A stretch of DNA of 62,905 bases, counting the filler, from Craspedostauros australis (Eukaryota), in assembly GCA_030167865.1 (NCBI GenBank). It is 8 parts of 8 records of this genome, joined end to end, with 100 filler letters (N's around TTAATTAATTAA, not from the genome) between each part and the next. Parts side by side here need not be neighbours in the genome. Positions count along the whole stretch, not along the records: positions 1 to 20,314 come from JALAGF010004488.1; 7 more parts are not named here. One strand, given 5' to 3'. This document shows positions 7,220 to 50,827 of the stretch, piece after piece. The notes below the pieces were generated by a model that was not told the DNA's origin, did not search any database, and was given only the letters and a program-made list of their open reading frames with translations. Position 1 is the first letter of the stretch. Every line of letters starts with the position of its first letter. The position numbers and the translations under genes were made by a program.

Positions 7220-7250
7220 ATCATTGCAATGCTTCATCGGCTTGGAAGGG

Positions 7251-7532
7251 CGTCAGGAATCGCAGATACTATGAAACCTTATGAAGACCAGCAGAATGTC
7301 AGTGGCACACCAGGCGAAGAGAAATGTACAAGTCGAACAATGAATGTACAGCATGAATACAAAATGGAAATGGGAAATTGTGTGACAAGATGGAAATCTT
7401 GGTCTCATAATCTGTCATCGAGAACAGCAACAACAACAAGAACAACAAGAACAACAAGAACAACAACATGAAATAAAGCACACTTTGTGCGAAACGAGGA
7501 CTCTCAATTTACGCCAAGTGGGTTTCTTAACA
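7251..7532 (+). mobile_element. 3' LTR of copia element B (LTR family B, about 280 bp)
   Basis: Follows the RNase H stop and purine tract GGAAGGG; (C/T)GTCAGGAAT..TTTCTTAACA; homologous to the reverse complement of 11371-11646. Confidence 0.85.
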
Positions 7533-7651: not shown

Positions 7652-10201
7652 TCAAGTCGGTTTGGTGCAGGTGTCTGGGCAAGAGCTGCCGGAGGCAATG
7701 GTCAAGACGGTATCGAGAGGCGCGCAGGTGGAAGCCGACGTTATGTCGGATTTGCATCGGTTGCAGTTGGTGCTGATCCCGACGGGGGTATCGTTGCACA
7801 CGCTGTTGCCGAGGATGATGTCCGCGTTAAAGTAGCGGCCGCTGCCCATGCGAAAGCAGGAGGCATCCGGCACGCATGTACCATCACCGATAAGTATGTC
7901 TCCCTCGAACTGGTTGTAGAACGTTGAAGTGACGTACTGAGCGTTCATGTTCGTGCACGAGTTGGCGTTGACACAGGACCCGGTTCCCACGATAGTGTTG
8001 GATACACGCTTGTTGTCGGTGGTGCCGTTGCCCCGTTTGGGGAATATGGTTGCGTAGTCTGCTGGTCCAGAACCCATGCCATAGCAGGCTTGTATTGCAG
8101 CGCATGATCCTGCGCCAATAATGGCGTCGCCGTTGGACTGTTGCGCGAATCTGTGGCATGCTTCTTGTCCAATGCACGATCCTGGGCCAATGATGGAGGC
8201 CTTGTCACTTCCAGAGTTGAAGTTGAAGAGGGGGCATGAAGAAGTGCCAGAGTGGCAGGATCCCTGGAAGATCATGGACTGAGTCTCGATGAAGATGCAT
8301 GCCGTCCTCCCAATGCAACTGTTGGATGCGATAGATGCGATGCCAGCCCAGGAGCAGGCTTTGTCTCCGTGGCAGCATGTGCGTCCTTCCTCCCCACACC
8401 AATCAATAGCATCAGCTACGGTTCCCGTGAACATCTCACCGGTGGCAGCGGCGGCCGCGCTGAAGATATCGAGGACACCGGTCTTTCCGCTGATGGTATT
8501 GAAGAGAGCGACGCCGTCAGCAATGGTTGCCTGGTTTTCGAAGATCCCGAGGAGATCAGCTTCGTTTTGGATAATGAAGAGAAGTTCTGCTCCCACGGCT
8601 GTGCCTGGTGTTCCGAGAGCAGACAGGAATGCCGATGTCGGTGCCGAAGTTGGCGCACTCGTTGGTGCGCTGGTCGGCACAGATGTCGGCGAAGCAGTTG
8701 GAGCAGTGGGGGCTGATGTGGGAGGTGATGTGACAGGTGTTGGGAAAGGGGTGGGGGAAAAGGTTGGAGAGTCTGTGGGCAAGGTGTCCTTGCCAATGCA
8801 ATACTCATCCACCTTGTCACCAGTGGGATTATTGTTGGTGTCATTGCCTCCTTTTGGACAGGCCCCATCGACATCACTCATGATGTAGACTTCGTCGGAG
8901 CTGCACTCCGTCTTCGTCATGCATCCTCTGCAGCCTTCGAAACTTCCGCATCCACCAGGAGGAATGATGATGTCTGTCTTCATCAGGTCATTGAATCCCA
9001 TCTTCTCACATGATCCATCGGCGGCACAGCCACCAGCACCAATGGTTAGGCTGCCTGTATGCTTGCCATCAGTATCATAGTTGACAGTGGAATGGGCATC
9101 CTTGCAGGCATTGCTGCCAACGCACGCATTCTCACCAATGTCAATGTGGCTGCGGATGCGGATGGGGGTCTTCTGCACGACGCGGCGTCCAGCTGCGTTG
9201 CATGCGTCTGACCCAACGCATGCACCGGTCTGGATGGTGACATCACCATGAGAACGACGCCCCACTCCCTCACAAGAATGAGGGGTGGTGCATGCCATCT
9301 CACTGACGAAGGTGACTCCTGTGATGGACGGGTTGATTTCATTTTCGTTCATCAACTCGCACGCACTTGTGCCAGTGCAGGAGGAATCGAGAATGAGGGG
9401 ATTGGGGCCCATATCCTTGCATGCGCTGTCGCCAGTGCATGCCGTGATCGCGATGGTCATGAATGGAGGAGAGTTGGAGGCGGAACCGGTGACTGAGGTG
9501 CATCCCGAGGATCCTTGGCAGCATGGGGCTGCGACAGCAGGCGATTGCATCGCAGCGATGTCCGCGCATGCTGCCTTCATCACGTCTGGTCGTTCGGTGA
9601 TGAGGAGCTGTTTGGTGGCAGCGACCAGGGCCAATTGGCCAGCAAGCACGTCATGCGACGCGTACTTGTTGAAGAGCTTGCGTGCGGCTCCTTCACCGAG
9701 GTCTCCAGCGCAGGCGAAGAAGTTCTGCAGCTCCGCGGACTCCTTGACAGCGGACACTGCCTCACGGCAGGATGATTTGTTCGCATCGCAAATGATGGTC
9801 TTGGGGCTTGCCTCTTGTGGTGTGAGGGTGGTGGTGCCATCCGGCTGGCAAATGATCTGGATGGTGGAATCGAAGACGGTTGAAGCAGCTGATGGTTTGG
9901 ATGTTGGCAGGCGGGTGGACTGGGAGGTCTGTGACGCAGTCGGCGACCCAGTAGGCAATGCGGTTGGCGCTGTTGTTTTCGCACCAGCCGGGTTCTCAGT
10001 GGGTGGCACTCGGTTGTTCTTGTTGCCCTTGTTGGTGTTTGCGTCACCGTCGGCGTCCTTAAGGATGCGGGTCTTCGTCATCATCATGTGGAGTTCCTTA
10101 GTTGGATCCACGGGAGTTCTGTTGCCACGGAGGACAGCATGGGCTGTTGCCGTGTTGGTGACAGCGATGAAAGCCGCGAAAGCTGCCTTGGTGCAGAGCA
10201 T
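7652..10201 (-). CDS. Secreted cysteine-repeat protein with Pro/Thr-rich mucin-like linkers (about 849 aa)
   Basis: Signal peptide MLCTKAAFAAFIAVTNTATAHA, then LRG and RIL (RXL-like) motifs; many IxxxxCxGxxAC repeats in two arrays; PTSAPTSAPT tracts. Confidence 0.85.
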   Translation of the reverse strand: MLCTKAAFAAFIAVTNTATAHAVLRGNRTPVDPTKELHMMMTKTRILKDADGDANTNKGNKNNRVPPTENPAGAKTTAPTALPTGSPTASQTSQSTRLPTSKPSAASTVFDSTIQIICQPDGTTTLTPQEASPKTIICDANKSSCREAVSAVKESAELQNFFACAGDLGEGAARKLFNKYASHDVLAGQLALVAATKQLLITERPDVMKAACADIAAMQSPAVAAPCCQGSSGCTSVTGSASNSPPFMTIAITACTGDSACKDMGPNPLILDSSCTGTSACELMNENEINPSITGVTFVSEMACTTPHSCEGVGRRSHGDVTIQTGACVGSDACNAAGRRVVQKTPIRIRSHIDIGENACVGSNACKDAHSTVNYDTDGKHTGSLTIGAGGCAADGSCEKMGFNDLMKTDIIIPPGGCGSFEGCRGCMTKTECSSDEVYIMSDVDGACPKGGNDTNNNPTGDKVDEYCIGKDTLPTDSPTFSPTPFPTPVTSPPTSAPTAPTASPTSVPTSAPTSAPTSAPTSAFLSALGTPGTAVGAELLFIIQNEADLLGIFENQATIADGVALFNTISGKTGVLDIFSAAAAATGEMFTGTVADAIDWCGEEGRTCCHGDKACSWAGIASIASNSCIGRTACIFIETQSMIFQGSCHSGTSSCPLFNFNSGSDKASIIGPGSCIGQEACHRFAQQSNGDAIIGAGSCAAIQACYGMGSGPADYATIFPKRGNGTTDNKRVSNTIVGTGSCVNANSCTNMNAQYVTSTFYNQFEGDILIGDGTCVPDASCFRMGSGRYFNADIILGNSVCNDTPVGISTNCNRCKSDITSASTCAPLDTVLTIASGSSCPDTCTKPT

Positions 10202-11350
10202 CTTTGCTGTTGTCTTCGTCGCCGTCGCGAGTCTGTTTGGTTCTGCACGTCGGGCGCATTTGTATGTGCGCATGTATGCATACGTGTCACGAGAATGGTT
10301 TGGTACGGATCACGTATGGGTTGAGATTGGCAATGCGAGCATCATGTGTGAGTTTGGCGGCGAGTTCCGTCCCACGAAGAACGGCAACGATTGTGAGTGT
10401 TGCAGTGATGTGTTCGTTTGTGTGAGCGTCATTGTTGGTGTGTGAAATGACGTGAGACGTGGTGGCGAGCAACGACAACGACAGCAATCAATGAAGATTA
10501 ACGAGATCCATCAATCGACGCAACATCGTGACGATTCGATCACGTCAAGATTGCGCACACAGGAGGCATCAGTTGCGCAGGCAAAGGGAAGGGAAGGGGA
10601 GAGAAGGAACGATGGTGATGGAAAAGAGCAGCTTGAGTTAATTCGGCTTGGAGGAGGTGCGGGATGTGAGCACCTGGATGTGGAGTGGTGCGAGTCTAGA
10701 ATTGGCAGGGCATGAGGCATCCTGGAGGAGATGGTCGCCACCGACAGGCGCCGCAGCGCCGCGGAACAACGAGCCGCGAAGATTGACTGGAATGTAGTAT
10801 GGTGCTCATACTCGCAGGTATCTTGCATTTCGACCGGTGGTGCGTGCTGCCGTTTCATCAGTGCTGCTGCCTCATCTGCGACGCTATCCGCGGTTCGCGT
10901 GCGTGTTGACGTCGGTTTCGCAAATGAATGCACTCTCCGTTGTGTAGGTGCGAGTGTGAATCTGCGCGTGTGCGTTGTCGATTCTTCCTCACGCATCAGC
11001 TCGCCTTCCATCCCCTTGTCTTCGTGATGTGCGCGTACCTTTTGAGCTGTTTCTCTTCTTTGCGGCCTCAGAGGGACTTGTCGTCTCTTTCTTACGCCTG
11101 CTGGTTGTTAGTTGATTGCTGGTTGCTGGCGTTTCCGATCTGATGATTGATTTGTTTTATGAGACTTTGTGTCGATTTCGGAGGCAACGAGGTGATTCCT
11201 GTGAGTTTGTTTCGCGGTGTTCTTAGTGAACATTCCTCTGAAGGAAGATTGGGGGATCAGTGATAGCCAATTCTTCTTCCGAAGGAAGACCTCCCTCTGA
11301 AGGAAGGTTTCCGCCCTCTCAGGAGACAGCCAACCCGAAACACCTCCAAA

Positions 11351-11366
11351 CGCAAACTGGAGACCA
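11351..11366 (-). promoter_or_regulatory. Candidate primer-binding site downstream of LTR-B
   Basis: Minus strand reads AGTG-TGGTCTCCAGTTTGCG just after the LTR's CA end; TGG would pair with tRNA CCA. Confidence 0.45.
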
Positions 11367-11370
11367 CACT

Positions 11371-11646
11371 TGTTGAGAAATCCACTTGCCGTCAATTCAG
11401 AGTCCTTGTTTCACACAAATTGTGCTTTGTTTCTCATTTTGCTTTGTTATCGTCATCGTTGTCTTGTTCTCGGTGGCGAATCATGAGGCCAAAATCTCCA
11501 TCTTGTCACACAATTTCCCTTCTCCATTTTTTTATTCACACTTTGCATTCATTGTCCCACTCGCACAATTCTCTTCATCTGGTGTGCCACTGACATGATG
11601 CTGCTCTTCATGCGGTTTCAGAGTATTGCATCTGTTATTCCTGACA
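11371..11646 (-). mobile_element. LTR family B, 5'-LTR-like copy
   Basis: TGTCAGGAAT..TTTCTCAACA on the minus strand; shares ATGTCAGTGGCACACCAG and GGGAAATTGTGTGACAAGATGGA with 7251-7532. Confidence 0.85.
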
Positions 11647-12135
11647 TGCCCTGCGTACAAACAAGACGGTATTTCCGTTACGAGCCCCTCGAGCGGGTCG
11701 ACCTGCACTTAGAAATGGGCATTCTAATTCTTGGTCTGCGATATCCAAACCAAGCACATATTCGTAATCCTTGTAATCTCCTCATAAGGAATCAACCAAC
11801 AGAATTTAGTTATGTCCTAGTTGAAGTTTTATGGATCTATCTATGCAAACATATCAGACAGGTGGTCCAACAACACAAAATTCGTTGTTTTTTGCCGAAG
11901 GTTCAATGTTCTTGGGAATCTGTCCTGAGATACCCAGTCACGGAAGACATTCTGAAGGTGTGGTTTGTTTGATGCGCGATAATTACACGTTGACATGTGC
12001 CAAATCGTTCGACATTAGAGAGTTATCGCTTGTAACTTTAAGCCATCCCCTGACCCTGTCGATGTGACATGGATTGGGAAGCCTCCCCAAACCTACGCCG
12101 TGACATTGAATCTTGGAAGGATTGGAATGAATCAT

Positions 12136-12659
12136 TAATAGAGCCCAAACGTAATAGCTTATCACTTGTTAGCTGTTGTTGGCTGTAGAGGCTTGATTGG
12201 CAAGCGGGTCCAAACGAGAGTCTTCTGTTCCACAAGTAGTCAATTGAGAATACTGGTAGATGGTGAAGAAACGTGCGGATTATGAGATTAGTGCTATGGT
12301 TCTTTCCTTCGGGGAGGATCTCCTGTGGTGTCCTGAATGACAATGTGTGTGGGTTGTGTAGCCCAAGTACCGTGGGTCGAGATCCGTTGTCTGAGTTCCG
12401 TGAGAGACAATGGGCGATGATGCGTGTTGCTGGGGCTCTGTTTCCGTGTGTCGGCGTTTTGGCGATGGTGGGTGTCAGAAACTTGGGTATCGGAACCCTA
12501 TTGGTTCCCTGACACGAATTCCGAAGATCTGCTTCAAGGTTCTGGATCTGTCTCCAAACGTGGGGTCCGGTGAAGTATCCGTTCGATCTACTGGAATGCT
12601 GACGAGTCGGATGATTCGTAGTCTCTCTCGCTAAGGTGGTTACTAGTTTAGCTCTATTA
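12136..12659 (-). mobile_element. Putative 3' LTR (family D, 524 bp) with TAATAGAGC..GCTCTATTA termini
   Basis: Abuts polypurine tract GAGATGAAGGGGAG (12673-12660), about 85 nt after the pol stop; perfect 9-bp terminal inverted repeat at 12136-12144 and 12651-12659. Confidence 0.7.
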
Positions 12660-12757
12660 CTCCCCTTCATCTCACGTTGAAACGTGAGTTGACTGAAAGC
12701 AAGAAAGCTAATCGTAGTGTGGTTTGTTCCGCCGCCCAAGATGGCGGCGAGCGGGCT

Positions 12758-15700
12758 TCATTCGGACTGTTCGTTGTTGTCGTAGTAGCCGCGGCCTTGG
12801 TGGCGGTTGGTGAGCATGGCTTCCAATGCCTTGTTCAACGAGGAGGTGATGCTGACTTGCTGGACTTGGTTGATGTGGTCAAGCCCTCCGCGGAAAAGGA
12901 TATCGGCGAGGGTTTGGATGACCATAGGTGTCCTCTCGTCGTTTTGGAGGACGGCCTTGATCTGAGCTGTGGGGTCGGGGGGCATCTGGAAGATGGATGG
13001 TTGCATCATCGTTGGTCCTCGGTTGCTGGACATGATGTATCCGGACCGAAGGCGTCGGGGTGACGGGTATGCTATCGTTGGTCGGGCCTCCGTTCGGGCT
13101 CTCTTGTTAGCATTGCTGGTCTCCGGAGTGTCGGGGGTCGATGGTAGGGGATGGTTCGAGGCACGGAGTTGGCGGGTATTGATGCTCGCATACTCATTGT
13201 AATTCACAGGTGCCGGGTACGCGGTTGCTACCGGCACGTCATCATCGGTTGGTCCCTCCAGTGGTGTAGGGACCTCTGGTTGCTCATCCTGGGTTATGGG
13301 AGGCATCGGCTCTGCTGCCTTGGGAGGATTCTCCGCGGCCGTGGTAGGAGCTCTCTTCGCGTTGATGGTCCCACTCGTGGATTTCTTGGCGGATCTGACC
13401 TGTTTGATCGTCTTGATTCCCGACATTCCCGAGGAAATGGTGGAGTCCTCGGATTCGTCGAAGAGCCCCTTTCTTTTGGGGCGATTGCTTTGCTTGCTGC
13501 TGGCTCCAGAGCTGGGTCGTCGCGATGATTGGTTCCGGTCGATTGAGTTGTCTTCTGGTCGGAAGATGGACCCAGAATCGTCACTGTCGCCGGGCTCTGG
13601 GATGGACGCGCTGTCCACGGAGTGGTCGGTTGGGATCATGGGCTTTGGGCGTACCTTGTCGGTATACCCTTGTCCATCTCGCGTGGCGGTCAAGATTTTG
13701 GACGCCGGTGATGGTCGTGATGATCGTCTGATGGGAGGTCTGGGATGGCTGATCACCGCTCCACTTGCGATCTCTGCTTCCACGTCAATCACACTTCCTG
13801 GGTCTTGCGGATCCTGATCTTCCTCTTGGTATGCCTCTGGATCGGATCCGTGGCGGTTGACTTCTTCCGCGGTCATCTTCTCGTCGAAGTGTCCGTCGGG
13901 GATCTCATCCAAGAACCTGCTATCAGGCGTCTCTCCTTCTTCAAGACTGAGTCTGGTATCCTCGAAGGCAGGTATGCTGTCGATCATCTCGTCCTCACTG
14001 GTGGGTGGGTTGGGTTCTCCTGCGAGTGCATTCTCCTCTCGCCTGAGATTGTTGGCGAGAGTGTCACTTTGCTTTCGGACCCCTCGGGCCTTCTGTGCTC
14101 GCGCGAGGATGATCGGGACTCGGTTCTTCCTTACTTTGAAGAAGTGGCAGATGGATGGTTTCCGCATGGTCGCGCGGAACGAGTCTGGTTGCTTGGCCCA
14201 TGCGCCGTCTTCAGCGGAGTAGAAGCATTGACCATTGGCTATGGCGATGCTGAGGACTTCATTGGCTTGGAGGTCGTTGTCCATATATTCGGAGAGGGTG
14301 AGAGGGTAGATGGATTGTTTCTCTACATAGGTGACAAGGCCGGTTGGTGCATTCTTGTTTCCTTTTGTGCAGTAGATATGCACTCTGCGGCCGCTGTACC
14401 CAACAACGATTCCTTGGAAGGTTCCCTTCTTTCCTGCAGGGTACAGCACTCTGGACCCAGGGACGGGGCATCGGTTGCCATCGTAGAATGGGGTGTACTT
14501 TGGGAACGTCATGGTGGGAGCTCTTGTCTGGAGTGGGGTGAAGTTGTGTCCAGGGTCTCGATTATGGCGGCTCTGTTTTTGAGGGGAAGGCATGTTCATG
14601 TTGCGGAATGCGAAAGAGGGTGCGGTCGCATTCCGTGCCAGGTCCTCCTGGAGTTCAGCAATCAGCATGTCACATCTGTATGTTTTGTGCTCAGGTGTGA
14701 CGAAAACCCGAGGTGTCAGGCCCGTGTGGAAGGAAGTTTCACAGTTACCTTCTTCGATAGCCGGCATGGTAGCTCCAGGTGGCGGTTTCCGGAACTTGGT
14801 CGATGTGGCGACGTGTGATTGGTTGTTTGGCATGATGGGCCCTGTCTCCAGCATGTCTCTTGGGTAGTAGAGAACTTCGCTTCCACATGATGCCGCGGAG
14901 GGGTTGATACTCGAGAGTGTGCTGAATTTGTCGGTGAGGGCTGATGGTGGTGTGTCACCACGCTGGATCAGGAATTTGTCGGTTGGCGCACCTGCTGGCT
15001 CGTGGTTCTGATTCGTGGTACGGTTGTCGGTCATGTCGTATACAACACTGGAATTTAGCGTCTGTTGGCGGTTGGGCGAGGCCGGTGTGCTCTTGGTGCG
15101 CTTGATGGGTCTGGATGGTTTCCTTTGTGCCGTTTCGAGGGGGTTCGGTTCTTGTTGGGTTCTGGTTAGCCGAAGGGTTTTCGATGTCGGGCTGTATTTC
15201 ATGGAGGTCTGTTGATACCTCGCCATGTTCACGCTCATAGTGTGTTCTTCCTTCGGCAGTGGTGGTCCTTGCGTTTCTGTGGCCATTAGATCGGGATCAT
15301 CGTCTGCTCTGGTCGTCCTGCTCTGTGTTATAGCTTGTGATATGACTTCGCTGTGGTATCCGGACTCATGGATTGAGTTCCGGAATATCGTTCTCGACGT
15401 GATGTGGTGGAATGGTGTCTTGGAAAGAGGTTTGGTTAGTATGTCGGCGATGTTGTCAACTGACGCAATGTGGGCGAACACGATGATTCCAGCGGCGATG
15501 CATTCCCGGATTTGGTGGAAAGCCAATGAGCAGTGTTTCTTCTTCAGTGTTGAGGATGGGACCGTAGTGTTGAGTACCACCGCTTTGTTGTCTCTGAGCA
15601 TGATTGCAGGTCCGTCGATGGGGACTCCGAGGTCTCTCAGCATGTAGCGCAGACCTGTGACCGCCTCGGTAGCTATCCTGGCTGCTACCAATTCGGATCC

Positions 15701-17245
15701 GTAGGTGGATGTTTCCACTGTGTTCTGTCGCTTGCAGATGGTCTTGACAATGGTATTGTTGATCAATAGTACCACTCTCGTCATGGATTTCCGTGTGACC
15801 TGGTCATGGCCATGGTCGGCGTCCACGTAACACGTGATTTGGACCGGCTTCCCTTTTGGTGTTGGTACTGATACGGGGGTGACTTCTGCTGCGGTAGGGT
15901 AGAATTCTCTCCAGTGGCTTGAGAGGGTAGTGTCGATGTTTGTGTGGTCCACTGGGTTGGGGTCGCAAAGGATGGCTCCCCTTTCTCGACCTTTGAGGTA
16001 CCCAATGATACGTTGGATGGTCAGGAGATGTCCTTCCCTTGGTGCCATAGCGAACCGTGCCATCGTCGTCGTGGCATATTGGATGTCCAACCTCCCGAGG
16101 GTCACAACCCAATTGAGGCAACCCAGTATTGATCGGTAGGTCCTGGCGTCTTCAGTGCTTGTGAGATCCGAGGTGTCGCTTTCTGGGTGACAGGCCTCTA
16201 CCATGGGAGTGGATGCCTTCGGGATTGTCTTCCCTACTAGTTGCTCCACTCGTTTGATGACGCTTCCAATGTATGTCTGGGCCGAGAGTCCGATGTTGAC
16301 TCCCCTATCCTTCCAGTTCTTGGGAAGGTCGACGATGTTTCTGCCAAGGTAGTACTCTGGGTCACCACATTGCTTCATGGTGTACCGTTTCTTGAGGTCG
16401 TCGATGATTGGGATGGGGTCCTTGATGAAGACCAGCACGTCATCCGCGTATGTGGTGATCATCTCGTAGTGGTTGTCGGCTTCTCGGGTGTAGATGTCGT
16501 TGTCGGCTTTGGAGGGTAGGAATTCCATGGTTCGGAGGGTGTCCGCGAAGTGTTCGTGGAACCTCGCACTTGATGTCCTCAGGCCGTAGAGTCCCTTTTG
16601 GATGATGAGGGGTTTGCCTTCGAGGTCGCCAAATTCAGGTCCTGCTCGGATGTAGCATTTCTTGAGGGTGTCTGCGTATAGAAACGCGTTCCCTACGTCG
16701 CCGGCGTATGCTCTCAGTCCGTTGGCTGCTGTGATGGCGAAGGCGATTTGGATGGTGTCTGATGCTACCACCCCTGAGTATACGTCTTCTGTTGGTGGGG
16801 ATGTCTTGTTTCCGTTTGCCACCAGTCTTGCCTTTCGACGTAGGTCGAACTTCACGTCGTAGACGATGTGGTATGGGATCTTGGTGTACCCATCTAGTGC
16901 TTCGTTCGGTCTCAGTTGTCTGAAGGTTCCCAACCGTTTGATCTGGTCCAGTTCCTTGTTGATGGCTTCGCTCCAGAGTCCGTTTCCGCTGAGCCTGTCG
17001 ATAGCCATGGCGTGTTTCAGGCTGTTGGATACCAGGGTGCCGAACTTGTACTTGTTTCCTGGGCGATGGTTCGCCAGTTTGGTGGCTAACATTGATCGCA
17101 TGTGCTGGTTCCTTGCTCTGTGGAGTTCCACCCATTCGAACCCTTTCTGGTCCTGTAGGCGGTTCTGCTCGGTGTATTCGATGATGATGTCCGGCTGTTG
17201 GGCCCTTAGGTCTCCCATCCTGCACCATGATCGCATTCCGTTCAT
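12758..17245 (-). CDS. CoDi pol RT-RNase H with an in-frame C-terminal extension of about 870 aa
   Basis: 1495-aa ORF; RNase H ends near 15390 but the frame stays open to 12758. Confidence 0.8.
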   Translation of the reverse strand: MNGMRSWCRMGDLRAQQPDIIIEYTEQNRLQDQKGFEWVELHRARNQHMRSMLATKLANHRPGNKYKFGTLVSNSLKHAMAIDRLSGNGLWSEAINKELDQIKRLGTFRQLRPNEALDGYTKIPYHIVYDVKFDLRRKARLVANGNKTSPPTEDVYSGVVASDTIQIAFAITAANGLRAYAGDVGNAFLYADTLKKCYIRAGPEFGDLEGKPLIIQKGLYGLRTSSARFHEHFADTLRTMEFLPSKADNDIYTREADNHYEMITTYADDVLVFIKDPIPIIDDLKKRYTMKQCGDPEYYLGRNIVDLPKNWKDRGVNIGLSAQTYIGSVIKRVEQLVGKTIPKASTPMVEACHPESDTSDLTSTEDARTYRSILGCLNWVVTLGRLDIQYATTTMARFAMAPREGHLLTIQRIIGYLKGRERGAILCDPNPVDHTNIDTTLSSHWREFYPTAAEVTPVSVPTPKGKPVQITCYVDADHGHDQVTRKSMTRVVLLINNTIVKTICKRQNTVETSTYGSELVAARIATEAVTGLRYMLRDLGVPIDGPAIMLRDNKAVVLNTTVPSSTLKKKHCSLAFHQIRECIAAGIIVFAHIASVDNIADILTKPLSKTPFHHITSRTIFRNSIHESGYHSEVISQAITQSRTTRADDDPDLMATETQGPPLPKEEHTMSVNMARYQQTSMKYSPTSKTLRLTRTQQEPNPLETAQRKPSRPIKRTKSTPASPNRQQTLNSSVVYDMTDNRTTNQNHEPAGAPTDKFLIQRGDTPPSALTDKFSTLSSINPSAASCGSEVLYYPRDMLETGPIMPNNQSHVATSTKFRKPPPGATMPAIEEGNCETSFHTGLTPRVFVTPEHKTYRCDMLIAELQEDLARNATAPSFAFRNMNMPSPQKQSRHNRDPGHNFTPLQTRAPTMTFPKYTPFYDGNRCPVPGSRVLYPAGKKGTFQGIVVGYSGRRVHIYCTKGNKNAPTGLVTYVEKQSIYPLTLSEYMDNDLQANEVLSIAIANGQCFYSAEDGAWAKQPDSFRATMRKPSICHFFKVRKNRVPIILARAQKARGVRKQSDTLANNLRREENALAGEPNPPTSEDEMIDSIPAFEDTRLSLEEGETPDSRFLDEIPDGHFDEKMTAEEVNRHGSDPEAYQEEDQDPQDPGSVIDVEAEIASGAVISHPRPPIRRSSRPSPASKILTATRDGQGYTDKVRPKPMIPTDHSVDSASIPEPGDSDDSGSIFRPEDNSIDRNQSSRRPSSGASSKQSNRPKRKGLFDESEDSTISSGMSGIKTIKQVRSAKKSTSGTINAKRAPTTAAENPPKAAEPMPPITQDEQPEVPTPLEGPTDDDVPVATAYPAPVNYNEYASINTRQLRASNHPLPSTPDTPETSNANKRARTEARPTIAYPSPRRLRSGYIMSSNRGPTMMQPSIFQMPPDPTAQIKAVLQNDERTPMVIQTLADILFRGGLDHINQVQQVSITSSLNKALEAMLTNRHQGRGYYDNNEQSE

Positions 17246-20200
17246 CCATAGGATCTCTAGGATTGCTTTGGTGGTTCCGTCCTCTCGTGTCTCGTGGTGG
17301 TGACGGGTGATTCCCTTTGCCTTCCAGTTGAGGTTCCTTCCATTGAGGATGAAGTTGTCTCTTTCGGTGTACTGGTCGCATTGTGCCAGGTATGCAAGTT
17401 AGTTGACTTCTGTTGCTGTGAGGTTGCAGGCAAAAGAGATGGATGTCATGTCCCATGGGATGTTCGTGTTGCACTCTGGTGGGTTTTGCCTCGGGTTCCC
17501 TGGATGGTTTGTTAGGGTGGGTACCCTTTGCGGTGGCGCGGTATTCACGCCTGTCGTGACTGGATCCGCTGCGATGGTCTGGATTATGGATCTGATCGTT
17601 CCATGGACGATGTTCTTCCATGGGATNNNNNNNNNNNNNNNNNNNNNNNNNNNNNNNNGTTTGTTTTGCTTGGTCCTCTTATTCCCTCCCCTTTCTTCGG
17701 GGCCGTCATCCATGCGTTGGTATGATGGTGGTCCCGACGAACATGGAAGATACGAAGATCCTGGATCAGAGTCTCCCCTGTCTGGCGTATCGCGGTTTGC
17801 TTGGGGTTTGTCCTTCTCGGTGGCACGTGTCGTGGGTGTCTTCGCTGTTCGCTTGGTTAGCGTTTGGGATTGGGTGACGGGTCCTGTGTTCCGTGCCTCC
17901 CCTGAGTTTGGGATCCCGGCGGGTCGCGTCAGTTTGTTGGTCTTGTTCTCCCATGCCCGTGGGTGCGTCGTCTTGGCCGTCGCTGCATACCCTCTTTTCG
18001 GTGGGGTCTTGGTCTTCCACCCTTGTGGGGTACCGGACAGTTCCAGCAGGGTCCGTGTGCTGGGGTTATCCGCCTCGGGGTCCATGTCTTGGTCGAAGGT
18101 GACACGCCTGTTGTTGTGTATACCTTTCCGGAAGGGGCGGACCACGCTCCATACCAACACGCGTCGGGATTCGTCGTCCAGCACGTGGTAGGTGAGGAAA
18201 TCCCCATGGGACTCTGCCACACCAAGCCAGTATCCTGATTTCTCCTTCGAGTTCGGGAAGGTAGCGTTGGGGTCATGGTACAAGACCTTCTCGTAGAATT
18301 GAAAGGTCAAGAGCGCAGAGATGTCGACGGTCTCTCCGTGTCGTACAGTGTATGGGATTGCGTATCGTAGGGACGGGTCTGATGTATGGTTGTGCACGTA
18401 GCACATATATCGGAAAGCGTGGAACCACGCCTTTGGTGGTGCCACAGTTTGGTCGATGAGTGTTGTGACGCATCGCTTCATGTACAGGATGGCATTGTGC
18501 TCGGCCGGGTTCTACTGCTGGTTGTGCGGTTCTGTCAGCCTTGATTTGATGTGGAGGTCCCTAAGAAGCTTGAGGACCTTCTCTCCGGTCTGTTCCTTCG
18601 CGTTGTCGCTGTGGAAGGCCCATGGTGCTCCCTCTGTCCTGATGAAATCCTGGAAGGCGACGAAAACCCCTTCTTTCTTCTTCAGGCCGTATGCGTTGAT
18701 CATGTGGGAGGATGTTCCGTAGAAGATTTGTGCCATGGAGTATCCGTCTCCGAAAGACTTGACGTTGGAGAATATGGTGTCTGTCGCCACGATCTCCCGG
18801 ATTCGTTGTCGTTGCATCCATTCGAACCTGGACTTCTTGTGCCTTCGCATAGGGTAGGTGATCACTGCCTGCGTGAGTTGTGTGGTTCTGGCGAGGGTCT
18901 GTTTGATCACGTGCATGGGTAGGTACCCGAGGTACGGTTGGATCTTGTGAAGATCGATGGACTTCCATTTAGCTCGGAAAGGAAACCCTTGGTGGCTGTA
19001 CTCGGTCATGGCTTCTGCAGGGTGTCGGTCCATGGTATCCATGGGATTATCCTTTCCCGGTTCATCAGTGCCGGTGGGGTTCTCGCCTTTGGTGTGCCCA
19101 TGGTATTCAGGTGCGCTTTGTGGGTCTCCCCGGAGGGTGTCAGCGCGTGTTGCCTTGGTCACGCCGATCTTGTTGGGGATGCGAAATGTCTCCCGATTTC
19201 TCTGGAACGCCGGTTCGGATCCTACCGAGTGTAAGGATGAGATGGCGCTGTCTGCCTCGTCATCCGGGTCTGGTACCTTTGTCAGTGGTACGTTGGTTGA
19301 CTCGGTGTATCCCTTCTGGTCCGTTCCTACCGCGTTAGCCTTGCGATCGATGCCTAGCTCCCTGTATAGGTGGTCGATGTCTCCCGCAGAGAGATTGTCC
19401 ACCAGGTCGAAGAGGGTGCCTTGGATCAAGATGGCCGTGTCGGTGGCCGATTTCGCGAACGTCACCGTGTCAATTGCATGTGACATTCCGATGAGCTCCT
19501 CAAGACTTAGAGTGTCAAGAAATGCGTCCACTTTGGGGTATTCCTCGTGTACACGGTTGGGGTCTCCTGTGGCGTGCTCATCTGGATGATGGGCGTTGGG
19601 GTCCATGGGTTCTCGTCCCTTCACGGGATTATCCGGGGTGCCGTCCTTGGCCTGGCGTGTCCCGGGTTCCATGGGATCCATTGATGCGTTGTGAGCGCTT
19701 GGATCCATCGCTCCAGCGTCATGCGGTGCATCAGGTCGGCCATCCCAATCAACTACCTTTTCTCCTCCGATTGGGTCCCTGGTAAGGTAGCAACCCATGG
19801 GCATGTTGCATACGTGTCCTCCTTGGTGATCCGAAGGGTTCCATCCTTGCTTTGGGGTGATGTCGTGGGTGGGCAGATCCTCATCGTCCTCCATGATGGG
19901 GAAGACGTCGAACGTCATCAGCACGTCTTGCATCTCCAAGTTGATCGTTGTGTCCTCGTCAGGCATCAGGCATTGTCTTCCTGTGCCTGGTGTCGAGAAC
20001 GATGCCCGGTGTTCCGACGAAACCGTATCGAGGACGGTTCCACTGGCCCGAATTTGGTGGTCGGAGAGCAGCGTTACCCGGCTGTCAACGTTCAGGGCGG
20101 CTTTGTAGATCCGGAGGATCACTTCGTTGCCTTCCCTGGTCCTGGCCTTGATGCTCGCGTCTATCACCGCGAGGTTGTTCTTCCTCATCGTGCTTGCCAC

Positions 20201-20358
20201 GGCACCGACGATGTTGTACGTCCGATGCGAGTATACGTAGTCAATCTTCCAGACTCGGTCCTTGTTCCCAATGACGCAGCATTGTGCGCCGCCGTCGCAT
20301 ACTGCGTATGTTTGNNNNNNNNNNNNNNNNNNNNNNNNNNNNNNNNNNNNNNNNNNNN

Positions 20359-20370
20359 TTAATTAATTAA
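20359..20370. other. Artificial contig linker TTAATTAATTAA within N runs (also at 46016, 47349, 49652, 54520, 56727, 59382)
   Basis: Identical 12-mer with stops in all six frames, always embedded in N runs. Confidence 0.97.
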
Positions 20371-20414
20371 NNNNNNNNNNNNNNNNNNNNNNNNNNNNNN
20401 NNNNNNNNNNNNNN

Positions 20415-20702: not shown

Positions 20703-23700
20703 ATGCAAGAAATCGAACAGGAGACAACCACCAGGGAACTACACCCTGATTCCGCATCAATCATCACATTCTCACAAGCTGTCGTTGATTGCTTACACAC
20801 AATCAAGCCTCTCCAACGCGAAGGCAGCGACTCTCTCTCCATCGACCTACACCAATTCAAGGTTGACGCCCACTACTTGCTACGCAGGCTCCGACTTCGA
20901 TTCAACACATTGAATCCACAACCAACCAACGTCAGCCTTCCAACATTCGAGCCAAGGGCAACAGTTGCCCAAGAAGCAAGCATCAACATGGCTGACTGGT
21001 GGCAACCGGACCCCGACGACATGACCAAGGAAGGAGCAACTCCATTCCAGGAGACATACAACAATTTCCACTTGGACATGGAGGATCACTTCGAAAAGGA
21101 CCTCAACAGCGTGTTTCTCAACGAAGACTTCCTCCGACTGGCCACCGACCACGCTGTCGAGCAATTCGTGGAGAAGCTGAGCACCTTCATCAGCACTGGC
21201 ACGATGGAACCCCGCTTCGACGCTCTCGATTTCATGTCCAAGGCCAAATCAGGACCATGGTACTACCAAGATCCTGAGCACCTCATGAATCAAGGGTACC
21301 TTCCACCCAAGTCAGCATTCAGTGCAGATGCATTTGTCCAAAGGACTCGCTCCGTGTGGAACGCAATGATCGAGAATCATCACTACCGTCTTGCATTCGA
21401 GTTGCTCCGTCGCCAGATGACAACGATCCGCCCAGGACCGTGGCTACTTCCAAGCGAATTTGAAATCGAGCAATTCGTTCAAGGAATGATCGAATCAAAC
21501 ACAGCGCCACTCACATCGGCCCCAGTGACTCGCTCTCCCAACCAAGGATCCACACTTGACATCAACCCGTCATTCATTCTCGACACAGCGAAGTGCATTC
21601 CACCAGCCACATAGGCAAACATCGAGCAACATGCTTACTCCGTCGCAATCATCGAGCCACAGCGGGATGCAACAAACTTCCCGACCTACGTCGATAATCG
21701 CATGATCAGCTACTTCGCCGCAGGCGGCGATTTGGATATCGCCGAACGCACTTCCGTGTACAAGGCATCCAACACCGACCCAGACACTCTCTCCTTCGAC
21801 GAAGCCATTCGCGATGACAACAAGGACGAGTGGATGAAAGCCGCCGAAAAGGAGATCCGCGATCTCACAGAAAAGGGAACATGGGAGGAAGTGAAGAAGA
21901 TCAACGTCGTCAACGATCGCATCTTTCTGGGAACCTAGGTCTTTCGCCGCAAGCGCCTTCCTGATGGAACCATCAAGAAGTACAAGGGATGCTGGTGTTG
22001 CCAAGGAGACCTCATGAATGAGGACGCTTCCACCTATGCACCAGTCGTCGCTTGGTCATCCATCTGCATCTTCCTCAGCACATCCATTGTCATGGGTTGG
22101 GCAACAACGTCCATCGACTTCACGAACGCCTTCGTGCAGGCTTCCATTCACAAGCCCGTGTACCTTCATCTCCCTCGCGGATTCAAGTCAACGAAGGGAC
22201 CTGATACCTGCCTCAAGCTCCGCAAGAGCTTGTACGGCTTGACGATTGCTCCTCGTCTCTGGTACAAACACCTGATTCGAGTGCTCACCACGATCGGCTT
22301 CAAGGCCTGCGACCAAGAGCAGTGCCTGTTCATCAAACCGGACATCATGATAGTCCTCTACGTTGACGACGTAGGCATCGCCTCCAAGACCAAGCAAGCC
22401 GCCGACGATTTCATCAAGTCAATGCGCGACCTCGGCTTCGAGCTCGCCCAAGAAGGCAGCTTCAACGAATTCCTGGGAATCGAGCTCAGCCGTGACCCAA
22501 AAGCAGACACAGTCCATCTCCGCCAGCCAGGATTGATCAAGAAGATCCTCGCAACCACGAAGATGGCAAACTGCAGTCCGTGCCCTGTGCCAACCACTCA
22601 GCTCGCACTTGGAAAATGCAAGGATGAGCCACCCATGAACGAGCCATGGAACTACCGCTCCGTCGTCGGCATGTTGCTGTATCTCACGACCAACACTCGC
22701 CCCGACCTAGCATTTGCGGTCTCCCAAGTCGCTCGCTTCGGAAGTGACCCTCGTCGCTCGCATGCTAAGGCCATCAAGCACATCATGCGCTACCTCAAAC
22801 ATACTGAGGACAAGGGCACCATTGTGCGTCCCACTGGGCAGCTTGATCTCAAGTGCTACGTGGATGCAGACTTCGCAGGGCTCTACGGACGAGAGGACAG
22901 CCAGGACCCCGTCTCCGTCAAATCGCGCACCGGCTACCTCATCACATTGGGAGGGTGCCCCCTTATTTGGAAGTCCAAACTCCAAACTGAGATTGCGCTA
23001 TCCACGATGGAGTCCGAGTACGCCGCTCTCTCTCTGGCAATGCGCACGTTGATTCCCATCCAACAGCTCATCCGCCAAGTCATCAACAACGCAGGCACCA
23101 ACATGCCGCTGCACACCAACCTCCAGTGTACCGTTTTTGAGGACAACCAAGCCTGCATTTCCCTCGCCACCAATCATCAACCAACCGCGCGCATCAAACA
23201 CTTCCTGACTAAGTGGCGCTTCTTTTGGTACTGGGTTAAGGCAGGGTTCATCTACATCCAGCACATCGCAACACCGGAGCAACTGGCCGACATCTTCACC
23301 AAAGGATTGTCCATCGCAGTCTTCGAATACCTACGATTCAAGATCATGGGTTGGTAACAACCAACAACAACAAACAACAACGAAGGATGAAGTTTTCATC
23401 AATACCACAACTCCAATCACGACCCAACACTGAGAGGGAAAGTTGAGATTCAATGAGGAACAGACTATTACCGGACATGGTATCAACCCAATTGGAGAAA
23501 TTCTTGTTTTGGCGCGAAATCTTCCGACTTGATCGACCACCAAATCTTTTCTCCTCCTTCCCCTCCTCATTCACAAATCCATCATGACTCAAACCTGACC
23601 GACCTGACTCACACCCACTTGGGAACTATATGCTCCTCAGATCCTCTTACTACAATATACCTCGATTCCCTTCATGCTGACGACTACTGCATCACTGCCG

Positions 23701-46071: not shown

Positions 46072-47304
46072 GAGCCCTGGCTGCCGCAAGTGGATGTAGT
46101 CGGCTTGTGGGTCACGGTTGACTTCGATGCCGAGGAACTCGTTGAAGCTTCCTTCTTGGGTGAGTTCGAATCCTCGGTTTCGCATTGAGCGGATGAAGTC
46201 GTCTGCGAATTTCTTGGTCTTGGATGCGATGNNNNNNNNNNNNNNNNNNNNNNNNNNNNNNNNNNNNNNNNNNNNNNNNNNNNNNNNNNNNNNNNNNNNN
46301 NNNNNNNNNNNNNNNNNNNNNNNNNNNNNNNNNNNNNNNNNNNNNNNNNNNNNNNNNNNNNNNNNNAGGCCGTATAGGCTCTTTCTGAGGACAAGGCAGG
46401 TGTTCGACCCCTTGCTTGACTTGAATCCTCGTGGTAGATGGAGGAACACCGGCTTGTGAATCTCTGCTTGGACGAAGGCGTTGGTGAAGTCGATTGATGT
46501 TGTGACCCATCCCAGAACGATGGATGTGATCAGGAAGATGCGGACGGAGGACCATGCCACGACTAGCGCATAAGTCGAAGCATCTTCGAGGATGAGATCG
46601 CCGCGGCAGCACCATCGACCCTTGTACTTCTTGATTGTACCGTCGGGGAGGCGTTTGCGGCGGAAGACCCACGTACCTGGGTAGATTCTTTCTCCATAGG
46701 GCACGGTGTTCTTGTCGACTTCCTCCCATGTACCCTTCTCGGTGAGATCTTGGATTTCTTTGTTCGCCGCTTGCATCCATGCGTCTCTATTGTCATCGCG
46801 GATGGCCTCGTCGAAGGAGAGTGTGTCTGGGTCGGAGGTCGAAGCCTTGTACACTGCCGTTCGCTCAGAAATGTCGAGGTCGGCGCCTGTAGCGAAGTAG
46901 CTCATGAGTTGCCAGTCAACATAAGCTGGGAAGTTGGTGGCATCTGGCTGTGGCTCGATGATGTTCACTGAGTATGCGTGTTGNTCNATGTTGGCCCAAT
47001 CCTTCTGTGGGATGCAGTTGTTNGTGTCGAGAATGTAGCTNGGGTCAACTGTTAGGGTGCTTTGGAGGATGGCTTGATAGTCNGTCTCGCGCGTGTTGGG
47101 TANGTGATGAACCGGCTCGGTGCCTCCTTCTTGCACTCCGAGGTTGAATTGCTGAACTTCGAACTTGCTGGGTTGCTGCCATGGTCCTGGGCGAATGGTG
47201 CTTGTTTGATGTCGCAAGGATTCGAACGCCAGCCGGTAGTCGTGGCTCTGTCCGATTGCATTCCAGATGGAGAGGAACTTTGCCTTGAACATTGTTGCTC
47301 CGAG
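46072..47304 (-). pseudogene. Second, diverged copy of the copia family C pol (spacer + RT), gapped contig
   Basis: YRLAFESLRHQTSTIRPGPW, DPDTLSFDEAIRDDN, GTWVFRRKRLPDG, IDFTNAFVQA align with 21380-22530. Confidence 0.9.
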
Positions 47305-50518: not shown

Positions 50519-50827
50519 CTTTTATGAACAATAGATCAGGGCAAGCCTGCGGATTGGATTGTGCAAGGAAGACAACATCATTCAAGAGCAGCAGGCTGAA
50601 TGAGCAAGGAAGAGGAATTGAAAGACATCCCTCTGTCCCAACTGGCTATCAAGCAAGAAGAAGGTGCGAGTGAGACTCAACCATGACAAGAGAAGGAAGC
50701 AGCCGCGGCTACTGTCCTATCAGGCGTAGACGCAAGCGCAATCAACGAGATCGAAGAGGAACGGTCTGCAAGACTACACCGTGAGGAGAAGAGGATTCTC
50801 AAGACGGTCAAGCAAGAGGAGACTGGT

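Follow-up and report, generated by a model that had tools for sequence, protein, structure and literature searches.

An 876-codon coding extension of pol beyond RNase H in a Ty1/copia retrotransposon copy from Craspedostauros australis

Accessory genes of LTR retrotransposons give infrequent glimpses of the interaction between element and host, including targeting, nuclear entry and escape from silencing, and to our knowledge such genes have hardly been studied except in plants and animals. Sirevirus-type Ty1/copia elements possess a lengthy additional coding region downstream of pol, an env-like ORF. Chromoviruses, which belong to Ty3/gypsy, bear a chromodomain at the pol C terminus, following integrase. 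Additional sense ORFs located between pol and the 3' LTR are recognised as a class, aORF-3S, in PMC7264820. Lineages of diatom copia elements are named CoDi, CoDi1-7, in an excerpt of Maumus et al. 2009 (PMC2806351).

The window analysed here, a stretch of 62,905 nucleotides from Craspedostauros australis, contains on its minus strand a single open frame of 1546 codons (17398-12761) that spans RT and RNase H (Table 1). The first-pass annotation had described a pol frame staying open for about 2.6 kb beyond RNase H, and this description is confirmed: 876 codons follow without a stop, up to the TGA at 12760-12758. The added sequence starts directly past the last motif common to relatives (...TIFR, ending at 15389), and the ADILTK motif lies before it at 15448-15431 (-). 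Neither N letters nor a composition step occur between 17398 and 12758.

Table 1. Features of the element and of the in-frame extension, in window coordinates.
Feature	Position	Strand	Remark
Purine run GAGATGAAGGGGAG then TA, candidate PPT and LTR start	12660..12673	-	85 nt past TGA
TGA closing the 1546-codon frame	12758..12760	-	
Extension P0001, 876 codons in frame with pol	12761..15388	-	no relative detectable
C-terminal block, residues 803-876, most hydrophobic, helix-looking	12761..12982	-	hydropathy
Acidic stretch, extension residues 451-550, net charge -25	13739..14038	-	charge
Basic "island", extension residues 301-450, net charge +14	14039..14488	-	strongest coding score
First 281 codons of extension, P/S/T/Q-rich, weakest coding signal	14545..15388	-	composition, periodicity p=0.027
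Conserved pol: chromo-like stretch, RT (RVT_2), RNase H, through ADILTK to ...TIFR	15389..17398	-	
In-frame TAA in conserved polyprotein, just before L.Y.Q	17399..17401	-	
Upstream pol, protease-like and integrase region	17402..20314	-	carries 32-N gap 17627-17658
In-frame TAG, integrase core region	18512..18514	-	
Break N44-TTAATTAATTAA-N44, removing gag/5' LTR side of element	20315..20414	.	

Like aORF-3S genes, the locus offers additional sense coding capacity that follows RNase H and precedes the element's 3' end, for a protein without a known family. It differs from them in that the extension continues the pol frame with neither a stop nor a gap in between and has no TM or env-like features, in that it is seen in a single copy, a conserved aORF being one present and open in all or most copies of its family, and in that the host is not a plant. 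Being of the copia superfamily and having much additional coding sequence downstream of pol, it also resembles the Sireviruses, but its extension has no predicted membrane segment, is not a separate ORF and shares no sequence similarity with theirs, and the RT belongs to another lineage. Env-like proteins are recognised by a TM segment in a separate ORF after pol; here the frame is continuous with pol, and the earlier view that the tail contains no TM segment and is not env-like is borne out by 19-residue Kyte-Doolittle windows that all score 0.75 or less, the top one being at residue 821 (0.75). A reader-type small barrel appended to Pol, the role proposed in the first-pass annotation, would recall the chromoviruses. 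However, in chromoviruses and in the clade of the window element such modules follow integrase or precede RT, and the extension comes after RNase H; among the relatives scanned, a Chromo domain is found in three proteins and a PTM/DIR17 Tudor domain in two, about 300-400 residues before RT.

The extension is true coding sequence, with a gene-like codon structure and the codon dialect of the element's own pol. Its reading frame holds no stop, against 28 and 25 stops in the other sense frames and 15, 16 and 38 in the antisense frames, and 2000 mononucleotide shuffles of the extension contain 28.8 stops on average and never fewer than 12. Codon-position periodicity is pronounced over the whole extension (chi2 80.3, p=3e-15) and is detected in its four sub-blocks (p=0.027, 2.4e-5, 3.5e-6 and 5.6e-5, the last value for 12761-13108). 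The 717 nt past the TGA (12041-12757) exhibit no periodicity (p=0.63), and there the same frame likewise stays open over 239 noncoding codons. In sliding windows over the extension, frame 0 ranks top among the three sense frames in ten of ten. Towards either end of the extension, a codon score trained on pol drops to around zero or below (-8.8, -1.7 and -2.5 bits); over the first 281 codons it ranges from -8.8 to +4.2 bits, yet remains the top of six frames, and across the final two windows (13588-12914) one antisense frame is slightly ahead (8.0 and -0.3).

Synonymous codon usage of the extension leans towards pol, with a log-likelihood ratio (LLR) of +17.8 overall and positive values in all four sub-blocks (+7.8, +4.9, +0.9 and +4.2). 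Pol pieces left out of the training score +3.6 to +48.6, whereas six host genes in the window score -30.8 to -86.1 and two other copia elements score -27.3 and -24.4. Expressed per codon, the value for the extension (+0.020) falls near the bottom of the range spanned by the pol pieces (+0.013 to +0.072). Because its synonymous usage is pol-like and its periodicity ceases at the stop codon, the extension has the appearance of a sequence long resident in the element, as opposed to a host exon.

The part of the frame preceding the extension is a well-conserved pol. Its RT matches Pfam RVT_2 at E=8.4e-21, and an RVT_2-type RT followed by RNase H assigns the element to Ty1/copia (Pseudoviridae-type). 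This part is 47-55% identical to 120 database polyproteins, the RNase H region retains all invariant columns when aligned with 29 relatives, and pol is complete up to the last conserved motif of the clade. Upstream of RT, where the Ty1/copia order PR-IN-RT-RH places integrase, the upstream ORF has an rve (integrase) match at its residues 545-598, with 16.6 bits (E=0.0098), below the curated cut-off of 32.6. A stop and a frameshift had been attributed to the upstream pol; two in-frame stops, a TAA and a TAG, are indeed present, but a frameshift is not demonstrable in this region, which a 32-N gap interrupts. The copy in the window is dead, as follows from the two nonsense codons upstream in pol, and the frame must therefore have been intact in an active parent. 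Elsewhere in the element stops occur at a rate of 2 per 1630 other codons, which gives a probability of 0.34 for no stop in 876 codons; the openness of the extension despite the upstream stops thus needs no special constraint.

The boundaries of the element are less distinct. The frame had been said to run up to the PPT, and a purine run does lie shortly past the stop (Table 1), but 15 runs of comparable quality occur in the 9.3 kb examined, so that a PPT-like run is weak evidence. Ty1/copia elements have two LTRs, with a PBS, a PPT and a target-site duplication; a search for LTRs found no direct repeat involving the element within the window, and the TA..TA LTR of the first-pass annotation is not confirmed. 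The sole repeat touching 10400-12760 is a 294-nt inverted match between 11371-11652 and 7532-7247 (76%), which fails to extend and was rejected as an LTR pair. Past the break on the other side lies a different copia on the opposite strand.

The relatives of the element are aquatic-metagenome elements. The extension was sought in about 200 of them, with RT/RNase H 39-56% identical, and is present in none: their pol ends 1-132 residues after the same last motif, with a single long-tailed exception whose tail has 303 residues. Since pol in the window is complete to that motif, the added sequence begins within the narrow zone of the relatives' variable tails (1-132 residues). An exhaustive phmmer search with the extension against 1.84 billion representative proteins returned no match; the organism's own proteome seems to be missing from this set, given that the best RT match is only 55% identical. 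Among proteins of 850-2706 residues, none of 6238 candidates scored, 30 pattern matches in metagenome contigs yielded no confirmed case, and no locus was found in viral contigs. The best tblastn match to 80 related loci has an E of 1.3, a Pfam scan of the whole extension identified no family, and nothing usable came from querying the Atlas with the entire tail. Only one copy of the extension exists within the window, where a second copy was sought and not found. Internal repeats or duplications that could account for the origin of the tail are likewise absent from it, and comparison with the element's own upstream polyprotein reveals no similarity (best E 1.4).

The extension had been described earlier as mostly P/S/T/D-rich; P, S and T together make up 28% of its residues, and it holds five or more short basic clusters. 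The beta-looking core of the island covers 14300-14467 (PVPGSRV...SIYPL). The proposal that the island is globular is not confirmed, single-sequence AlphaFold2 giving a mean pLDDT of 36.3. An SH3/KOW/Tudor fold likewise finds no support from Pfam, PDB phmmer, hhalign, hmmsearch or AlphaFold2: a Pfam scan of the island gave no match at E<=10, KOW included, PDB phmmer with the island gave none, and Pfam matches to chromo, Tudor or PWWP domains are absent from the extension as a whole. The first Atlas matches to the island were to PWWP/Tudor proteins at a score of 0.81, a level that shuffled proteins reach one third of the time.

The idea of an accessory ORF 3' of pol is plausible for the clade. 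A separate small ORF just after pol is present in six of 80 related loci (L004, L005, L006, L010, L047 and L064) and in 13 database proteins (P0123-P0135). These ORFs encode 124-213 residues, separate from pol, and Pfam recognises a KOW domain in eight of ten. A PDB search matches this protein to Spt5 (E=2e-6), and Foldseek superpositions give an rmsd of 1.0-1.7 A. In L004 and L005 the small ORF lies in frame right behind the pol stop. The literature searched contained no description of a 3' ORF of the Spt5 KOW type. The ORFs downstream of pol in L040, L001, L032, L078 and L002 belong to no Pfam family, and the one downstream in L063 is a host PAP_fibrillin gene.

These observations suggest, with some reservation, that the extension is a real, element-borne and lineage-specific sense additional ORF that forms the last 876 residues of Pol through in-frame reading. 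It would occupy the position that accessory genes take in LTR retrotransposons, with RNase H on one side and the 3' end on the other. The element's protease probably frees it after translation, or else it may remain attached to RT/RNase H. The predicted product would be mostly disordered, with a basic core of 150 residues (+14), an acidic stretch (-25) and short basic clusters; to judge from composition, it would most likely bind nucleic acids or chromatin, or else deliver the replication complex to the nucleus. The first-pass annotation had conjectured a chromatin-targeting or anti-silencing protein. If sibling copies keep the tail open and under selection, it would represent a new Pol appendage of very large size, carried by a copia element whose host is alga-like, and such conservation would give a handle on what these appendages do.

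A somewhat unlikely alternative is that the tail derives by capture (transduction) from a host gene or a different mobile element, is confined to this copy or a few copies and is translated accidentally, with no role in the life cycle. Its absence from all relatives examined, the orphan character of the sequence, the single copy visible in the window and the weak coding score at both ends would fit such an event, and transduced ORFs are described as occurring in one or a few copies in an excerpt of PMC7264820. However, the extension sides with pol in codon usage, whereas the six host genes and two other copia elements side with the host, and no host-like relative appeared among the 1.84 billion representatives, a set seemingly without the organism's own proteome. 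It is highly improbable that the frame results from a junction artefact, in which a 3'-truncated copy was joined to an unrelated host exon or a draft contig is chimeric. The window is a draft of joined pieces with gaps and no LTR pair was found for the element, but the break would need to fall by chance within a few dozen bases past the last pol motif with the frame kept, the sequence from 17398 to 12758 is uninterrupted by N or by a composition step, and codon usage is pol-like on either side of the junction. The probability of a chance open frame in T-poor noncoding DNA is close to nil. Although T is scarce on the coding strand (AT skew -0.2 to -0.4) and the frame also stays open through the 239 noncoding codons past the stop, none of the 2000 composition-matched shuffles had fewer than 12 stops, and periodicity at p=3e-15 in the extension compares with p=0.63 in the next 717 nt; the shuffle stop counts and the codon periodicity together reject this explanation.

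The small KOW ORF of the sister elements offers a further alternative, in which the extension is its fused, expanded and fast-diverged counterpart, the island corresponding to the KOW barrel, the C-terminal block to its two helices, and the intervening stop having been lost. This derivation appears decidedly doubtful. The two share their position in the element, a broad clade, and an order of parts running from a short beta-rich, barrel-like segment through a disordered stretch to a helical end; they differ in that the relatives' ORF is separate, 124-213 residues long and recognisable as KOW, whereas the extension is fused, 876 residues long and without detectable homology. In the tree, the RT/RNase H of the window element falls inside a clade of 34 rows (SH-aLRT 98) that holds five of the six KOW-ORF loci, and the in-frame placement of the small ORF directly after the pol stop in L004 and L005 would favour this reading as well. 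However, the pairing of the window element with L040 in this tree is flagged as a long-branch join. An hhalign comparison of the island with the relatives' KOW ORF picks the expected register, PGSRVLYPAGKKGTFQGIVVG against G.R..V..G.yKG..G.I, but at a probability of 0.5% and with a score of 10.99 that 59 of 300 shuffles equal. Against ten KOW blocks, the mean Smith-Waterman score of the island is reached by 25 of 1000 shuffles, but the maximum by 279 of 1000, and for the C-terminal block against the relatives' C-terminal helices the figure is 322 of 1000; no test is significant. An hmmsearch with the profile of the relatives' ORF reported nothing, and the Pfam KOW family is absent at E<=10.

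The broader form of this idea holds that a copia clade of aquatic microbial eukaryotes encodes an Spt5-like KOW protein 3' of pol, and that the tail represents this gene after fusion to Pol and growth by about 700 disordered residues; as a whole it seems quite unlikely. Were it true, the elements would come equipped with a mimic of a KOW module of the Pol II elongation or ribosome type, which could, for example, act on transcription or silencing of the element's own copies. The relatives' small conserved KOW ORF, a by-product of this analysis, may be more useful than the tail itself.

The RVT_2 domain occupies residues 173–385 (Pfam, E=8.4e-21) of a single long minus-strand frame, and the RNase H part of this frame retains all columns that are invariant in an alignment with 29 relatives. 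The final motif in common with relatives (ADxLTKPL....F......LFR) extends to 15389. From this point the frame stays open for 876 codons (the extension, or tail, P0001) up to its TGA, in agreement with the ~870 residues past RNase H described in the first-pass annotation. This openness is more than chance. The extension has no stop in its own frame, versus 28 and 25 in the other sense frames and 15, 16 and 38 in the antisense frames, and composition-matched shuffles (n=2000) carry 28.8 stops on average and at least 12. Nucleotide bias by codon position is strong across the extension (chi2 80.3, p=3e-15) and remains significant when four sub-blocks are tested separately (p=0.027, 2.4e-5, 3.5e-6 and 5.6e-5). 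The same frame is also open for 717 nt past the stop, yet codon periodicity is absent there (p=0.63). Under a codon model trained on pol, frame 0 ranks top among the sense frames in all ten sliding windows and among all six frames in eight; the signal is weak at both ends of the extension (-8.8, -1.7 and -2.5 bits), and an antisense frame is slightly ahead in the last two windows.

Synonymous codon usage identifies the extension as part of the element. Judged between a pol model and one built on six host genes in this window, the extension lies on the pol side by +17.8 log-likelihood units, with positive values in all four sub-blocks. Pieces of pol that were left out range from +3.6 to +48.6 and host genes, each left out in turn, from -30.8 to -86.1; the window's two other copia elements reach -27.3 and -24.4. 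The open frame is real, and in the parent of this element it very probably formed part of the coding sequence. The upstream part, with in-frame TAA and TAG codons, shows that this copy is dead. At the rate of two stops in the 1630 other codons, the probability of no stop in 876 codons is 0.34, so survival of the frame beside two nonsense codons needs no special explanation; openness indicates that the frame was intact in the active parent and is uninformative about selection since insertion. The gag side and 5' LTR are missing because of the break at 20315–20414, and the window contains no direct repeats involving the element. A purine run (12673–12660, followed by TA) lies 85 nt past the stop, but is weak evidence for a PPT, since 15 comparable runs occur in 9.3 kb.

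Features of the studied element, of its relatives and of other copia elements in the window
Feature	Position	Strand	Remark
Single frame	17398-12761	minus	1546 codons
TGA ending this frame	12760-12758	minus	
ADILTK	begins 15448	minus	
Extension (P0001)	15388-12761	minus	876 codons
In-frame TAA	17399-17401		within conserved polyprotein sequence
In-frame TAG	18512-18514		within conserved polyprotein sequence
32-N gap	17627-17658		upstream part
N44-TTAATTAATTAA-N44 interruption	20315-20414		other side is a different copia, opposite strand
Island	tail residues 301-450		basic, net +14
Acidic stretch	tail residues 451-550		net -25, directly after island
Other copia, RT/RNase H ORF	21939-23357	plus	24% identical to studied element
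Other copia, short RT-like match	46366-46779	minus	
Other copia, gag/zinc-knuckle/Pol_BBD ORF	50687-53767	plus	
Small KOW ORF	L004:1982-2488		
Small KOW ORF	L005:3955-4536		
Small KOW ORF	L006:2937-3371		
Small KOW ORF	L047:1314-1748		
Small KOW ORF	L010:1707-2147		
Small KOW ORF	L064:1105-1542		

The relatives of this pol do not share the tail. A search with RT/RNase H yields 757 database matches, the best 120 of which are 47–55% identical, so that no close sibling exists among database proteins. In 119 of these 120, pol terminates 2–131 residues past the point where the tail starts, and one has a 303-residue low-complexity tail; the AD..TK motif is present in 94, at a median of 40 residues from the end. 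Among 80 related metagenome loci (39–56% identical), the pol tail is 1–132 residues long in the 73 with a stop and an alignment covering the end of RNase H; six others ran off the contig and in one the alignment ended early. No extension-like sequence occurs in the 80 loci (best tblastn E 1.3). As a query, the extension finds nothing in Pfam, database proteins, metagenome or viral contigs, or the Atlas, and has no match among 1.84 billion representative proteins; by these searches the tail is a lineage-specific orphan. Five contigs (L002, L053, L057, L058 and L078) bear exact 111–120 nt terminal direct repeats and a gag-pol ORF that restarts past pol, and look like LTR elements assembled as circles. 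The distance from pol stop to gag is ~1.1–1.9 kb in L003, L006, L057, L058 and L080, a spacing into which an extra 2.6 kb ORF would not fit. At L063:2396–3244, a PAP_fibrillin (plastid lipid-associated) gene adjoins a related element, indicating that at least this relative's host is plastid-bearing.

Six of the 80 loci, with RT/RNase H 52–54% identical to that of the window, carry a small ORF just past pol. It is in frame and directly behind the pol stop in L004 and L005, and in another frame, 65–175 nt downstream or overlapping, in the other four. A profile of this ORF matches 13 database proteins of 124–213 residues (P0123–P0135) as well as PDB entries for Spt5 KOW domains (E=2e-6), and Pfam KOW is found in eight of ten aligned members (best E=1e-6). 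Modeling with AlphaFold2 from the alignment predicts an Spt5-like KOW barrel (residues 1–50, pLDDT 83–92), then a disordered linker and, at the C terminus, two helices (pLDDT 67–75); the barrel superimposes on Spt5 KOW5 with rmsd 1.0–1.7 A over 48–51 columns (Foldseek). No description of such an ORF was found in the literature searched, where KOW combined with retrotransposons returned nothing, author-name matches or plant SPT5L/KTF1 papers. Some copies (L005:4250–4360; P0124, P0131) contain a short insert matching the N-terminal RT region, 76% identical to that of database protein P0025, which suggests that the 3' ORF and pol have recombined.

In a 74-row RT/RNase H tree, the window has a long branch (0.77 versus a median of 0.23) and falls within a 34-row clade (SH-aLRT 98) that includes five of the six small-ORF loci; its pairing with metagenome locus L040 bears a long-branch flag. 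A diverged KOW ORF fused to pol is a reading to be weighed: the island resembles a KOW motif by eye, and hhalign chooses the KOW register. However, hhalign gives this match a probability of 0.5%, and its score (10.99) is equaled by 59 of 300 shuffles; hmmsearch of the island with the KOW ORF profile reports nothing. Smith-Waterman scores against the KOW blocks are reached by 25 of 1000 shuffles for the mean and 279 of 1000 for the maximum, and the C-terminal block's score against the relatives' helices by 322 of 1000. With no test favoring homology, the fused KOW ORF stays a minority possibility. The SH3/KOW/Tudor-like fold proposed earlier for the island is likewise not borne out: single-sequence AlphaFold2 yields pLDDT 36.3, and neither Pfam (E<=10) nor PDB phmmer returns anything. 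An Atlas feature search places the island near PWWP and Tudor clusters at 0.81, a value that shuffled proteins attain one third of the time.

Capture of a foreign fragment by this one copy would also produce an orphan tail; set beside the pol-like synonymous usage, it is an unlikely origin. A junction artefact is less probable still, and the sequence from RT to the stop contains neither N nor a composition step. The tail contains no internal repeats and does not resemble the upstream protein of the same element. The most suitable label for the extension is an additional ORF carried in frame on copia pol. In plant elements, sense-strand ORFs located after pol and before the 3' LTR are a described class (PMC7264820). 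Passages of the CoDi founding paper mention ORF1 and ORF2 alone (PMC2806351).

Several short basic clusters are spread along the tail, and the earlier view that it lacks a TM segment holds (top 19-residue hydropathy 0.75). Its composition suggests that it is most likely a disordered, charged accessory part acting in nucleic-acid or chromatin binding or in nuclear delivery, and it may be cleaved off by the protease of the element or remain joined to RT/RNase H. Some relatives in the clade do have reader-type modules, though at a different position: Chromo in P0037, P0049 and P0085 and a PTM/DIR17-type Tudor in P0091 and P0113, ~300–400 residues before RT and past the integrase. A conserved W...W..G...W..L...P....YA stretch, chromo-like by look, lies just before RT in relatives and also in the window (~17130–17280).

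The window has seven pairs of 44-N runs separated by 12 bases (at 20315–20414, 45972, 47305, 49608, 54476, 56683 and 59338). The bases within the first, TTAATTAATTAA, introduce a stop into each of the six frames; the pieces are apparently linker-joined or masked, and genome adjacency across the pairs may fail. A 294 nt inverted repeat (76% identity, 7247–7532 and 11371–11652) flanks a DUF7640 host gene at 7652–10309; it does not extend and is no LTR pair of the studied element. Codon usage in the copia ORFs at 21939–23357 and 50687–53767 is host-like, unlike that of the studied pol.
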